Shown here: piece after piece, positions 55,295-64,000 of the stretch
Layout: each line of letters opens with the position of its first letter
How positions within the stretch are numbered: the stretch's first letter is position 1
DNA from: Paracoccaceae bacterium
Lineage (GTDB): Bacteria > Pseudomonadota > Alphaproteobacteria > Rhodobacterales > Rhodobacteraceae
Length of the DNA: 64,000 bases
Assembly (NCBI GenBank): GCA_965214325.1
Contig: CBDCBG010000004.1
Coordinates: 190,843 to 254,842 of the forward strand
Reading direction: 5' to 3'
Position numbers and translations under genes: made by a program
Notes under the pieces: generated by a model
Database searches by the model: none
What the model was told of the DNA's origin: nothing
Seen by the model: only the letters and a program-made list of their open reading frames with translations

Positions 55295-55419
55295 GAACCT
55301 TCAGGGGTTCCTTGTTTTTGTGGCGGTTCTGGCATTGACTTGAACATCGCCCAGGAAATAGAGTGGCAACTGTGAAGAAGTTCGGAATGGCATCGCTTGT
55401 GCCGATCGCCGGGAATGAG
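55295..55419 (+). repeat. 125-bp direct repeat DR1 (promoter region of the RiPP precursor)
   Basis: About 80 percent identical by eye to 59675..59800. Contains the palindrome GAACC-N6-GGTTC and a sigma54-like -24/-12 element. Confidence 0.85.
55388..55402 (+). promoter_or_regulatory. candidate sigma54 (-24/-12) promoter
   Basis: TGGCATCGCTTGTGC versus the consensus TGGCACG-N4-TTGC, with correct GG/GC spacing. It lies 28 nt upstream of ATG 55430. A palindromic UAS-like site sits about 90 bp upstream (55295..55310). Confidence 0.35.
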
Positions 55420-55429
55420 GAGAACGGAC

Positions 55430-55690
55430 ATGAAGACGCAATCGCAGATCCAGGAACAAATTCTTGCCAAGGCTGAGGAGGACGAACAATTCCGCGCCCG
55501 GCTTCTGGATGATCCGAAGGCGGCCATCAAGGACGCAACCGGACTTTCGGTTCCGGACGGCATCAACATCCGTGTCCTTGAAGACGACGCCACCGACTGT
55601 CATCTGGTCCTGCCGCCGGCAGGCCGGAATCTGTCGGATCAGGAAATCAGCGGTATGGCCGGCGGCATTGGTGACATCAACACCTGGTGA
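55430..55690 (+). CDS. NHLP (nitrile-hydratase-like leader peptide) family RiPP precursor, 86 aa
   Basis: MKTQSQIQEQILAKAEEDEQFRARLLDDPKAAIKDATGLSVPDGINIRVLEDDATDCHLVLPP fits the NHLP leader pattern. Double-Gly type site SGMAGG, then the core IGDINTW. GAGGAG RBS. Confidence 0.8.
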   Translation: MKTQSQIQEQILAKAEEDEQFRARLLDDPKAAIKDATGLSVPDGINIRVLEDDATDCHLVLPPAGRNLSDQEISGMAGGIGDINTW

Positions 55691-56247
55691 ACATGGTCCT
55701 GCCGCCGGCAGGCAGGAATCTGTTTCCTTGAGGCGGATGCAGGTGCATTCAGTCGCCTGCAAGTCCGGCCAGGAGTTTTCTTCACTCCGTGCCGCGGTGC
55801 TTCGACCGGCTCCGTATGGGCATGGCATGGCCACCTCGCCGACATCCGCGGCCCCGCGCTGGTGGCTCCATGCGCGCCCTGCTATCGCCCCGTCACTGCC
55901 CCTGAAGCCGCCACCCTGCGGAGCCGGACTGGAACTAGCCCCTTGAACGACAGGTCGCTGCAAGACGTGACGGCACCCGCTTTGGCCGGGATCCTGCGGC
56001 TGCGTGCCCGGTCTCCCGGGAAAAGTTCCCCGCACCGCCAACAGGAAAAGGCCGGGCGCATTCCCATCGCATCGGCGCATTCGAAACAAGATGCGTGCCC
56101 ATCGCACCGACACTCCAAGGGTACGGAATGCGGGCTTGTCTGTATCTGGCAGGTTGGCCCTTTGGCGCGCGTGCGCCGACCCGATTGCCGAATTGCGACA
56201 GACTCGTGACCTGCGAGCCGATAGGCTGAACCCGCCAGAAGCAAGCC

Positions 56248-60900: not shown

Positions 60901-60916
60901 TGTGACGCTGACCCTC

Positions 60917-63829
60917 TCAAGCTGCCTGGCGCAGTGCAAGGTCGCGAAACTTCCCCTCCGCCGCAAGCAGTTCGTCATAGCTTCCGGTCTGCACCAGGCG
61001 CCCCCGATGCAGCACGTGGATCCGGTCCGCGTTCCGGATCGTGGACAGGCGGTGGGCGATGACAATCCGGGTGTTCGTGGACTCCTCGATTCCCTTCATT
61101 GCCAGTGCCTGGCTCCTTGTGTCCAGCCAGCTCGTCGGCTCGTCAAGGAACAGGATCCGGGGCCTGTGCACCAGCGCCGCCGCCATCCTTATCCGCTGGG
61201 TCTGGCCACCGGACAGGTTGGCCGAGTTCTCGCCCACCGACGTGTGCAGGCCCATCGGCATGGCGCGGATCTCATCGGCGACCCCGGCGTGCTCCAGCGC
61301 ACGCCATGCATCATCCTCGGTGAGGCTGCCGTCCGCCCCAATGACGTTGTCGAGCACGCTGCCGGGTCGCAGGGAACTGTCCTGCATGACCACGCCCATC
61401 TGTCGTCTCACGAAGGCGAGGTCCAGCTGCGCAAGATCCCGGCCGTCATAGCAGACCGCCCCCGACTGCGGCCTTTCCAGGCCGAGCAGGAGCCGGAGCA
61501 GGGTCGTCTTGCCGGCGCCGGATTCCCCGACGATCGCGACAAGTTCGCCAGGCTTCGCGCTGATCGAGACGTCCTCCAGCACCCTCGGTCCGCCTGCGGA
61601 ATAGGCGTGGCTTGCCCGGTCAACGAGGATCCGGCCGGAAAGCGCGGCTCGGGCCCGTCCCGCCATTCTCGCGGGTGCGGGGCTCGCCAGGATGGGCCGG
61701 ACCTGGTCACAGGCCGGCTTGACCAATGCAACCGCCCGGGCCGCGTTGCCGAGCATGACGGTCGCCATGCACAGCACCATGACGGCCGTGAAAACCGCAA
61801 GGAAATCCGCCGTGTCCACGCCGCCTCGGACAACGACCGTCGAGAACAGGATGGCGGATGCCAGGGCGGGCACTGCCGCACCGAATGCGGCAAGGTGCTC
61901 GCCGAGCATCGACAGCCTGATCTCCGCCTTCTTGTGGCCGTGATACCGCCGTGCCCAGGCGGCGAATGCCGAGTCCTCGGCAGCTGTGGCCCGCAGCTTG
62001 GAAATCCCCATGAGGAACTGCTGGGTGTCTCCGGCGAGTCGGCGCATGGTCTCCAGGTACCGTTGTTGCGGCCCGATCATCAGGATGCAGAACATGGCCG
62101 TCACCCCGATCATCGTGGCGGAGAGAAGCAGCGCGATCCAGCCCATCCAGGCATCGTAGAGGAACAGGAGCCCGAGCGCAGGCAGCAGGAACAGCGTGGA
62201 CAGCACGCCATCGGCCGTGACGCCGGCGACCCTGTCCCGCACGTCCTGGAACACCAGCGATCTTGCCGAGAGCTCGCCGGCGGTATGGCCGCGGAAGAAG
62301 CCGGGACCCAGGCGCAGCAGGCGATCCCAGACCAGGGCGCCCAGGCGGGCGGCCACGCGACCCTCGACCCTCATGAGCGCCGTTCCGCGAAGGATGTGCA
62401 GAAGCGCCACGAGCGCTCCGGTTCCGGCGAGGATCGCCGCCAGTTGCAATGCCGGAACCGCGTTTCCGCCAGGCGCTGCCGCGGCCGCCAGCCGGCTCAC
62501 CACGAATGCGGGCGTCAGGGCGAGCGTGCCGGCGGCAATGCCGGTGAGGACAAGCACGGCGACATCTCCTGCCACGCCGCAGGCCCCCGCGCGGAACAGG
62601 TCCCTCAGCCCGGCGGTGCCATCCGCCCGGCCGTCGGTCAGTCCCGGATACAGGCAGTGCACCTCCCGGAACGAGGCGGCGGTGCTGCCGTCCGCAAGGC
62701 GCGAAGCTCCGGTCGAGGGGTCCGCGACCCGGTACCGGCCGGCCATTCCCGGCAACAGCGCCAGGGGCTGTCCGTCCTCGCGCCGGATTGCCAGCATGGC
62801 ACCGCTGTCCCCGAGCCACCAGCGTCCAGACGCCCTCAGGCGCACCTTGCGCTTCCGCAACGCCGATGCGTCGCAGATGCCGTCCAGCGAGGGGTCTTCG
62901 CCGACCGGAACGGCAGGCACGCGGATCTCGAACCCTTCCCGCCTGCCGATCATGCGCAAGGCTTCCGCCATGGCTGAGCCGTACTTCGCCAACCGGAGCC
63001 CGGGACTGTGCAGCGCTTCCAGGCTGGTCCTGGCGCGCGCTTTATCATCCCGGCGCCTTGTGGCCTGGGCGGCCTGCAGGTTCGCCTCGTCGACAAGCAG
63101 CAGTCTCCGGCCCAGACTTTCCGCTTCGAGCAGGATCTCGTGGAATCCCGGCAACCCGTCGTCCAGAAGCTGCCTCCCGTCGAGTTCGGCGGTGGTCATG
63201 CAGTCGAACGTTTCCTCCCCGTGCAAGCGGATCCAGGCGTCCCGGGAGACGGGCACCAGGTCGCGACCGCCGGTGTCCGCCAGATCGAGAAAGGCGGCCT
63301 CGATGCCGCCCGCGGCCAGCCAGGCAACGCCATGGCCGGGCGAGGCGACGCCGCGTCCCGTCATTGGCCCGGGACGAAGGCGCAGTTCCGTTGCCGGAAC
63401 GCCTTCCATCTCGCCGGACACAGCCGCGGACAGGGACTCGATCCAGAAGTCGACATGCCTGTCGAGTTCCGCCCTGATCGCATCGCCATCGTCACCCTCC
63501 GCCAACGCATCGAGGAGGCATTCATGCGTCAGCCGGAGCAGCCTGGATCCTGGCAGTCCCTTGGCGACGAGCTTCATTCCATGACCAGCTTCGTCGACGC
63601 TGAAAGCCAGCTGGCCGGTCTCGAGACGGACGAAATGCCTGTAGGCCGAAGTGATCCGCCCGGAGTCGTGCCTGGCCGCCAAGACGTCGATGGCCCCGTC
63701 CTCGACAAGCCATGCATGGCCGGACTCCCACAGGCTCACCGGTCGGCTTGCAGCGGCCGGACACGCGTCCCCACGTTCGAGGAACAGGCCGCCCAGGCCA
63801 GCCTGCGCACGGAGCTCATTCGCCATCAA
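60917..63829 (-). CDS. NHLP-type bacteriocin export ABC transporter permease/ATPase with cNMP-binding-like N-terminal domain (970 aa)
   Basis: N-terminal beta-barrel-like region, 6-TM ABC exporter domain, Walker [10 protein letters not shown], signature LSGGQTQR, Walker [10 protein letters not shown]. Confidence 0.8.
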
Positions 63830-64000
63830 GCAGCCTCCGGTAGATGCCGTCCCGGGCGTACAGCTCGTCGTGGGATCCCTGGCCGACGATGCGGCCGCCG
63901 TCGACGACCATTATCCGGTCCGCATCGCGGATCGTGCTCAGGCGGTGGGCGACGATCAGGCAGGAGCATCCGCGGCGGCGGATGCTGTCGTCGACCATCA
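63816..64000 (-). CDS. ABC transporter ATPase, C-terminal end only (gene continues beyond the window)
   Basis: ...[44 protein letters not shown]. The stop overlaps the downstream ABC gene start by 14 nt. It is probably the peptidase-containing NHLP exporter partner, but this cannot be seen here. Confidence 0.7.

Follow-up and report, generated by a model that had tools for sequence, protein, structure and literature searches.

The last part of a 64,000-nt stretch of DNA from Paracoccaceae bacterium GCA_965214325.1 (contig CBDCBG010000004.1, positions 190,843-254,842 of the forward strand; hereafter the window) carries a gene cluster for a ribosomally made peptide with post-translational modifications (RiPP), which we regard as rather likely to be a functional member of a conserved cluster family of uncultured metagenome-assembled genomes (MAGs). 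Its enzymes would brominate, prenylate and oxidise a short Trp-ended peptide that is then exported. This reading draws on the gene identities, a conserved gene set, the C-terminal aromatic residue of the core peptides, purifying selection, a predicted protein fold and the logic of the gene neighbourhoods, and each chemical step in it is inferred. In the proposed pathway, an 86-residue NHLP precursor would be made from its own promoter, a halogenase would brominate Trp7 of the core with the help of the leader, and an orphan protein with a predicted ABBA fold would prenylate this aromatic residue at the C-terminus as well. A CmcJ/NvfI-type Fe(II)/2-oxoglutarate (Fe/2OG) oxygenase may then add one oxidation; its site is not predictable, although the Asp that frequently, if not universally, stands two or three residues before the C-terminus is a candidate. 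Finally, a C39-peptidase ATP-binding cassette (ABC) exporter and a partner ABC subunit would cleave after Gly-Gly and export the modified heptapeptide.

The precursor gene (55430..55690, + strand) encodes 86 amino acids and matches the NHLP-leader model TIGR03793 from end to end (all 77 model positions, 1-77), with 74.2 bits where the cut-off is 50.9. A first-pass annotation of this DNA had called an NHLP-leader precursor of this length and had named this model as the test of its own call, which the score bears out. The leader ends in ...NLSDQEISGMAGG, and the core, IGDINTW, follows directly after the Gly-Gly of the ...SGMAGG boundary. A ribosome-binding site, GAGGAG, precedes the gene at 55417-55422 (+). 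The leader is 34% identical to that of SrpE and retains the motif NL(S/T)xxx(I/L), which SrpI uses (PMC10858898).

Homologues of the cluster were sought with the orphan. A word-indexed homology search returned 44 proteins; those that carry a name belong to MAGs of Gammaproteobacteria, Rhodobacteraceae, Rhodospirillaceae, Nitrospira and Acidobacteria. When one genome per GTDB species was scanned with the orphan as bait (16-sequence alignment), 45 related loci came up, all in uncultured MAGs, labelled as Paracoccaceae, Boseongicola, Silicimonas, Arenicellales, Candidatus Poriferihabitaceae, Pseudomonadales, Nitrospirales and others. The most similar one, at 96-97% DNA identity across the cluster, is on a Paracoccaceae chromosome. 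The window proteins were mapped on these loci by phmmer. Among the 41 loci with a scorable orphan, the NHLP precursor was found in 37, the CmcJ-like oxygenase in 34, the ABC subunit without a peptidase domain (ABC2) in 31, a CMAS-type methyltransferase in 16 and the halogenase in 15, and the loci lacking a gene are mostly those cut by a contig end. Co-occurrence in related genomes was a check set by the first-pass annotation, and the genes do stand together in dozens of genomes. The setting is wider than the alphaproteobacterium-like one described there, with MAGs, presumably of sponge symbionts, from several phyla. That the hosts are sponge symbionts is what we infer from isolate names, the name Poriferihabitaceae and the link to the srp clusters discussed below. 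No YcaO, radical-SAM or LanM gene occurs in the window, as had been noted before, or in the complete related loci.

The core peptides are uniform in length and in their last residue. In 45 precursor sequences (the window and a few duplicate loci included), the core comprises 6-8 residues after Gly-Gly, in one case after Ala-Gly, and ends in W or Y without exception (45/45). The remaining residues vary with the tailoring genes. Loci with a halogenase and no methyltransferase, the group of the window, have the cores IGDINTW, IGDIDTW, VSDIDSW, ISDMDTW, GFGDINTW and IGDIHTW; those with the methyltransferase only have FAPGGDSW, YAAAGDSW, IAPTSDGW, FAPTNDSY, FAPTDDSY, IAPTKDSY, WAPTNDSY and WAPTDDSY. 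The cores WAPTSSSY and WAPTSDSY accompany both genes, and IAPTDDSY, AVPTSGGW, YAPSNGNW, FSGQAW, WMSDWW and others accompany neither (cyclase-type loci and others). A Trp is present in the core of all 19 halogenase-containing loci, and several loci without a halogenase have none.

Compared with five relatives, the ratios of nonsynonymous to synonymous substitution rates (dN/dS) of the halogenase (0.19-0.29), the orphan (0.25-0.40), the oxygenase (0.17-0.28) and ABC2 fall within 0.16-0.40, and these four genes are therefore under purifying selection. Synonymous divergence (dS) is unevenly distributed along the cluster. Between the window and the loci L004, L005 and L011, which come from MAGs labelled as other classes, dS is 0.09-0.26 for the halogenase-orphan segment (56248-59302) and 0.17-1.4 for the oxygenase-exporter segment (59983-63826). 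Because dS is much lower in the former, the two halves of the cluster seem to have different histories, which suggests recent lateral transfer or recombination, although MAG binning errors could contribute. L004 (1-12012), from a gammaproteobacterial MAG, holds two paralogous clusters back to back: a methyltransferase-type cluster with the core FAPTNDSY and exporters, and a halogenase-type cluster with the core IGDIDTW, its own orphan and oxygenase, and no exporters of its own.

The halogenase gene (56248..57738, +) encodes a flavin-dependent enzyme of 496 amino acids. The first-pass assignment to this enzyme class is sound: the protein matches PF04820 with 599.8 bits, and the catalytic motifs are all present, namely GGGTAGW (13), GEATIP (49), Lys79, WQWRIP (263; the WxWxIP motif recorded earlier) and EPLES (334). 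Among the enzymes compared, it scores highest with Xcc4156 (6y1w; 593 bits, 54% identity over 489 amino acids), followed by 9luq (497 bits), BrvH (6frl; 466 bits) and MibH (5uao; 208 bits), whereas the published SrpI sequence reaches only 85 bits and 27% identity. The enzyme is therefore not an SrpI orthologue, and the kinship with SrpI that had been considered earlier gives way to membership of the Xcc4156/BrvH group. An exact-sequence look-up of the window halogenase returned no record.

In a neighbour-joining tree without support values, the precursor-linked halogenases form a clade of their own that includes P0045-P0050 (75-94% identical to the window enzyme), and members of the window-type subclade always adjoin an NHLP precursor. 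This RiPP-linked subclade is sister to the TonB-receptor-linked clade and not part of it, which answers a doubt raised in the first-pass annotation. A further clade, apart from this one, unites the halogenases of the WAPTSSSY-type clusters, and the tree, again read without support values, offers a suggestion of two independent recruitments of halogenases to such clusters. The TonB-linked context was checked in one example, L048 (1002-10937), in which the gene order is TonB-dependent receptor, second Trp-halogenase homologue, SapC, Cupin_8, halogenase (67% identical) and major facilitator superfamily (MFS) transporter. That locus adjoins a GH3 glycosidase gene, and the arrangement is very common in marine genomes.

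BrvH and the Xcc enzymes, whose active site is open, brominate indoles in vitro but do not take free Trp; their native substrates were stated to be unknown, and a peptide substrate was hypothesised (PMC7336383). A precedent is SrpI, which brominates the C-terminal Trp of an NHLP precursor with the help of the leader (PMC10286304, PMC10858898). By analogy with SrpI, and given the halide preference of the relatives of the window enzyme (PMC7336383), the halogenase would brominate Trp7 of the core in a leader-dependent manner.

The orphan gene (58250..59302, +) encodes 350 amino acids and is a putative leader-dependent peptide prenyltransferase with a predicted ABBA fold (prenyltransferase (PT) barrel). 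It has no significant Pfam, NCBIfam or PDB sequence match; a single match to DUF6127 stays below threshold (20.6 bits against a cut-off of 27). An AlphaFold2 model built with 37 homologues (mean predicted local distance difference test score (pLDDT) 87.8, predicted template modelling score (pTM) 0.89) consists of repeated strand-strand-helix-helix units, and the top 39 matches of this model in a Foldseek search of the PDB are all ABBA aromatic prenyltransferases, with a probability of 1.00 for the top ones. Matches include AmbP1, DMATS1, EpzP, CloQ, NphB, FamD1, AnaPT, FgaPT2, PagF, LimF and CdpNPT. A separate AlphaFold2 model of the srp-linked paralogue family (pLDDT 91.2) gave the same picture, its top 50 PDB matches all being ABBA prenyltransferases. 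Across both family models, E-values go down to 2e-6, at template modelling (TM) scores of 0.4-0.55. The ABBA-like character proposed in the first-pass annotation is thus supported by two independent structure predictions that match only aromatic prenyltransferases at the top.

Invariant residues of the orphan include E50, D61, Y109, D110, D238, H322, K324, K335 and Y337, which lie on predicted strands, and the predicted barrel strands show conserved Lys, Arg and Tyr residues spaced i, i+2. The paralogue branch, a distant one represented by P0285, shares 27% identity with the window orphan, and an alignment of the two family profiles spans their full length (hhalign E 8e-50); conserved in both are the Glu of FGFE, the Asp of ADF, LEYD, the Asp of FDV, the His and Lys of GI(N/H)HIK, and KAY. 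An exhaustive profile search retrieved 3,280 cluster representatives at E<=1e-3; a limit of E<=1e-10 left about 2,160 of them and one of E<=1e-30 left 247, and none of the ten representatives that were looked up by name (0/10) had an informative name. A reading of the orphan as a BURP-like or lyciumin-like cyclase was set aside, as the CH motifs are lacking and the fold is that of a PT barrel.

The genes next to the orphan hint at the chemistry. The slot that abuts it upstream differs in content between loci and is filled by a class II terpene-cyclase-like gene, a CMAS-type methyltransferase gene or the halogenase gene. Clustering of unassigned neighbouring open reading frames (ORFs) revealed, in seven loci, a gene for about 300 amino acids with the motifs DxD(S/D)T and QxxDG(G/S)W, for which the precomputed Pfam annotation lists no family. 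A profile of five members matches drimenol synthase (E 6e-8) and squalene-hopene cyclase (E 2e-6), as well as a squalene-hopene/tetraprenyl-curcumene cyclase, AstC and a prenylcyclase. A natural fusion is seen in P0213, an incomplete MAG protein from NCBI, in which the last 74 residues of the cyclase domain (E 4e-14) are joined by a short linker to a complete orphan-family domain. In 16 loci the slot is taken by the CMAS-type methyltransferase (identified by Pfam); among its top NCBIfam matches are cyclopropane fatty-acid synthases and a geranyl-diphosphate 2-C-methyltransferase, enzymes that attack carbon-carbon double bonds. An olefin-protonating cyclase and an olefin-methylating methyltransferase as neighbours both require a prenyl chain as substrate. 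Because of these neighbours, the predicted fold and the invariant C-terminal aromatic residue, we read the orphan as a peptide prenyltransferase, putatively a leader-dependent one. Three Nitrospira MAG loci with a terpene-cyclase-like gene (L024, L029 and L053) also carry two tandem CmcJ-like (YDMC) genes, and a 299-aa gene upstream of the cyclase-like gene had no family match in these loci.

The convergent genes supply the oxygenase and the exporters. The oxygenase (59983..60900, - strand; 305 amino acids) matches the CmcJ/NvfI-family model NF041278 with 157.3 bits against a cut-off of 80, so that the CmcJ-like oxygenase reported on the - strand is retained. The gene probably begins with the ATG at 60900, which lies 16 nt past the stop codon of the ABC gene, and not at 61065. 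In the alignment with NvfI (7de2), the HxD...H triad and a C-terminal Arg are conserved: AHAD and FHTAF align to the H-x-D and the His, respectively. Known members of this family act on small molecules (a cephalosporin and a fungal meroterpenoid), and full-text literature searches found no report of a CmcJ-type enzyme in a RiPP pathway.

Both ABC exporter genes that the first-pass annotation called NHLP-type have an NHLP-exporter model as their best match. For ABC2 (60917..63826, -; 969 amino acids) this is TIGR03797, with 642.6 bits, short of the equivalog cut-off (709.4). Its first 284 amino acids (62975-63826, -) precede this match and have no Pfam domain or other family match, and the length is kept in the homologues (966-979 amino acids). 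The C39-peptidase exporter (63816..64000, -) is cut by the window end, as had been pointed out; its C-terminal 60 amino acids, the part inside the window, match positions 654-709 of the model TIGR03796 with 83.7 bits. A full-length homologue of 738 amino acids with a Peptidase_C39 domain is seen in L001 and L002.

Although each ingredient is of a kind already known (NHLP precursors, halogenation of Trp in peptides and prenylation of RiPPs by ABBA enzymes), full-text literature searches found no paper describing this gene combination. The first-pass annotation likewise did not recognise it, but the cluster is less isolated than this might imply, given the srp-type paralogue and the reported ABBA maturases of proteusins. 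To our knowledge, the final product of the srp clusters is still cryptic. Loci of the P0285 type also carry YcaO, a fatty-acid-desaturase/GlnE-like protein, a CMAS-type methyltransferase, C39-ABC and ABC2 exporters, and an NHLP precursor ending in AAG-LCCCL. We call them srp-type because SrpE has the core LCCCW and a leader clearly related to that of the LCCCL precursor (PMC10286304 supplement; PMC10858898). The srp clusters and the window cluster have in common an NHLP precursor whose core is very short and ends in Trp, the NLxxxx(L/I) leader motif, the C39-ABC and ABC2 exporters and an apparent sponge-microbiome distribution, and srp-type loci hold the orphan homologue at 27% identity together with the methyltransferase. 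In contrast, srp has a YcaO and a Cys-containing core (LCCCW/LCCCL), whereas the window has no YcaO and no Cys in IGDINTW; srp-type loci lack the CmcJ/NvfI oxygenase that the window has, and SrpI belongs to a different halogenase clade. A supposed similarity of a 296-aa protein of the srp-type locus to the CmcJ-like enzymes was rejected. In the srp-type loci L050/L051 (4651-8991) and L052 (2571-8902), the large fatty-acid-desaturase protein adjoins YcaO, which is an unusual combination, and shows weak matches to GlnE or GlnD nucleotidyltransferases.

The orphan family also resembles NctPC, whose substrate is reportedly, according to Hubrich et al. in 2024, a cyanobacterial proteusin. Each is an ABBA-type barrel (a predicted one in the orphan family) that goes together with a class II terpene cyclase or cyclase-like protein; NctPC is fused to it, and the orphan has such a gene beside it in seven loci and is fused to such a domain in P0213. 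The NctPC system includes a cyclase, whereas the window cluster has none and instead carries a halogenase and an Fe/2OG oxygenase; its hosts are cyanobacteria, whereas those of the window family are apparently sponge symbionts. NctPC is an ABBA-barrel prenyltransferase with low similarity to the cyanobactin enzymes, is fused to an MstE-like cyclase and geranylgeranylates Trp, and it belongs to the ABBA-barrel prenyltransferase/cyclase maturases reported for proteusins (PMC13290415). PagF and LimF, which prenylate Tyr or Trp side chains of ribosomal peptides, are among the structural matches of the orphan and share no sequence similarity with it; cyanobactin prenyltransferases are leader-independent (PMC12715784), and PalQ, which is specific for a terminal Trp, has a trans-isoprenyl diphosphate synthase (trans-IDS) fold and not an ABBA fold (PMC13290415). 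The halogenase has the catalytic motifs of Xcc4156 and BrvH; Xcc4156 comes from a free-living Xanthomonas and BrvH from a marine metagenome, whereas the window enzyme sits in a separate, precursor-linked subclade. In general terms, a survey of sponge metagenomes has described uncharacterised NHLP cluster families with halogenases and transferases (PMC9426513).

Several observations weigh against a brominating and prenylating pathway, and they bear on different parts of it. The constant presence of the orphan is partly a product of construction, since it served as bait, and L049, a locus found through the halogenase with the core IGDIHTW, both exporters and the oxygenase, has no orphan within its 8-kb flanks. 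Neither the 37 members nor the profile of the orphan family show sequence similarity to characterised prenyltransferases in Pfam or the PDB, the TM-scores of the orphan model are only 0.4-0.5, the cluster has neither a prenyl-diphosphate synthase gene nor a flavin reductase gene, and the loci have no isoprenoid supply genes. Moreover, the LCCCL core of the paralogue clusters has no aromatic acceptor, so that the orphan may use an acceptor that is not an aromatic ring, such as the carboxylate at the C-terminus, which would yield an ester. The lack of sequence similarity, the TM-scores, the missing isoprenoid supply genes and the LCCCL core would fit a RiPP cluster in which the ABBA-fold protein is no prenyltransferase at all but catalyses another alkyl or acyl transfer or a cyclisation, or serves as a leader-binding scaffold, leaving halogenation and Fe/2OG oxidation as the chemistry. 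We find this rather unlikely, as every high-ranking structural match is a prenyltransferase, terpene-cyclase-like genes adjoin the orphan and in one case are fused to it, olefin-type methyltransferases in the same slot are hard to explain without a prenyl chain, and the conserved Lys, Arg and Tyr residues keep their alternating spacing on the barrel strands.

The halogenase could be a passenger from the TonB-receptor-linked clade that acts on a non-peptide indole, in keeping with the bromination of free indoles by BrvH and the Xcc enzymes in vitro (PMC7336383). Thousands of homologues are 62-68% identical to it, with a very large set at 65-67%, among them P0053 (67%), whose TonB-receptor locus has no peptide gene; the one context checked has the TonB receptor, SapC, Cupin_8 and MFS genes. 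Such a role is nevertheless very improbable, given that the adjacency of precursor and halogenase is kept in 14 related loci as well as in the window, that the window-type enzymes form their own subclade and a second one is tied to clusters with a Trp-first core (WAPTSSSY), that all halogenase-bearing loci have Trp in the core, that the leader retains the motif used by SrpI (PMC10858898), and that a peptide substrate had already been hypothesised for the clade (PMC7336383). Finally, mobile-element remnants surround and partly invade the window copy, as would be expected of a decaying, non-producing remnant in an insertion-sequence (IS) graveyard: a TnpB remnant lies between halogenase and orphan, a decayed second precursor and a duplicated promoter block follow the orphan, fragments of IS elements, an intron and a resolvase take up 12 kb upstream, and the close relatives L001 and L003 have IS insertions of 6-8 kb between orphan and oxygenase. 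We consider decay improbable, because all six pathway ORFs are intact and full length, the dN/dS of the pathway genes (0.16-0.40) lies below that of the TnpB remnant (0.45-0.69), and the promoter, the ribosome-binding site and the catalytic motifs are retained.

A functional brominating and prenylating cluster would have consequences beyond the window. It is quite possible, though somewhat less likely than not, that the orphan founds a large unannotated clade (about 2,160 representatives, no Pfam family) of leader-dependent peptide prenyltransferases that define a widespread group of sponge-symbiont RiPPs: peptides of 6-8 residues whose C-terminal Trp or Tyr is prenylated, with the chain left linear, methylated or cyclised by a class II cyclase acting as partner, and in the branch of the window also brominated on the same Trp. 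Were this so, an ABBA-fold family with thousands of unannotated members, including the srp-cluster homologue, would gain a function, and the srp clusters would gain a sister family with an undescribed enzyme set across Paracoccaceae, several gammaproteobacterial orders, Nitrospirales and others, that is, a natural-product pathway of a rare kind common to many lineages of sponge symbionts. Ribosomal peptides would be the native substrates of Xcc4156/BrvH-type halogenases, with IGDINTW-type precursors as a genetically encoded candidate substrate for that clade (PMC7336383), and some orphan brominated or prenylated indole metabolites of sponges would have a ribosomal origin. Leader-guided bromination and prenylation of a C-terminal Trp would also be sought-after tools for labelling peptides and proteins.

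The regulatory elements around the precursor are partly duplicated. A terminator-like hairpin with a T-run (55295..55310, +; second copy at 59674-59691) opens the conserved upstream block and would insulate the cluster from the mobile DNA upstream. A consensus scan found a candidate sigma-70-type promoter, TTGACT-18-TAGAGT, at 55335..55364 (+), and an alignment of the upstream regions of 14 related loci shows a conserved GTTGAC upstream of the precursors, which fits a sigma-70 -35 box. The sigma54-like promoter of the first-pass annotation was not recovered: the consensus TGGCAC-N5-TTGCW has no + strand match at <=2 mismatches upstream of the precursor, and since the conserved GTTGAC fits sigma-70 better, a sigma-54 promoter was rejected. 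Directly 3' of the precursor stop codon lies a hairpin (55697..55717, +) that folds only modestly better than shuffled sequence (z-score -1.8) and is a possible attenuator. It is located inside a repeat (55694-55723) of a 30-nt segment from the 3' part of the leader coding sequence. This segment encodes LVLPPAGRNL, includes a near-palindrome (CCTGCCGCCGGCAGG) and occurs in three copies (55605-55634, 55694-55723 and 59509-59538); the copy just past the precursor stop codon reads LVLPPAGRNLFP-stop. The triple repeat could be a recombination site for the swapping of core peptides, or merely a terminator hairpin. An Rfam scan of 54800-64000 gave no match.

Remains of a second precursor lie downstream of the orphan (59416..59624, +; 26 bits to the precursor). 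Only the 3' part of its leader is recognisable, with 86% identity between 59497-59570 and 55593-55666; the tail after it is non-homologous. In L043 the corresponding position is occupied by an intact precursor; relative to it, about 200 nt of promoter and 5' coding sequence have been lost in the window, and a functional second precursor was therefore rejected. Next to these remains, a second copy of the terminator, promoter and 5' untranslated region block (59675..59800, +) is 86-93% identical to 55295-55419 and has no precursor after it. The decayed copy and the duplicated block in the window, together with the intact copy in L043, suggest that precursor genes ancestrally flanked the halogenase-prenyltransferase pair on both sides and that rearrangement followed.

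An ORF of 171 amino acids (57738..58253, +) overlaps the stop of the halogenase gene at one end and the start of the orphan gene at the other. It is an N-terminal TnpB remnant (IS200/IS605) with weak matches to NF038281 and PF12323 (HTH_OrfB_IS605), is open in the closest relatives and absent or degraded in others, and has a dN/dS indicative of relaxed selection; in L004, L011, L013 and L016 it is missing, and the halogenase abuts or nears the orphan. In view of the TnpB matches, its absence in relatives and the relaxed dN/dS, a role as a pathway enzyme was rejected, and it is probably not part of the pathway.

As the first-pass annotation had stated, mobile DNA adjoins the cluster. The region 43247-54856 contains only mobile-element genes and fragments in a continuous run: a group II intron reverse transcriptase/maturase, an IS6/IS240 transposase, three IS66 pieces, a frameshifted IS5 and an ORF with a DruA domain. 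The last is possibly of Tn5 type, because DruA accompanies Tn5-type transposase domains in related loci. An ORF of 666 amino acids at 46212-48212 (-) had no Pfam match. Immediately upstream of the cluster, an N-terminally truncated resolvase (54897-55220, -) is bracketed by 48-nt inverted repeats (54870-54917 and 55229-55276) that are 75% complementary.

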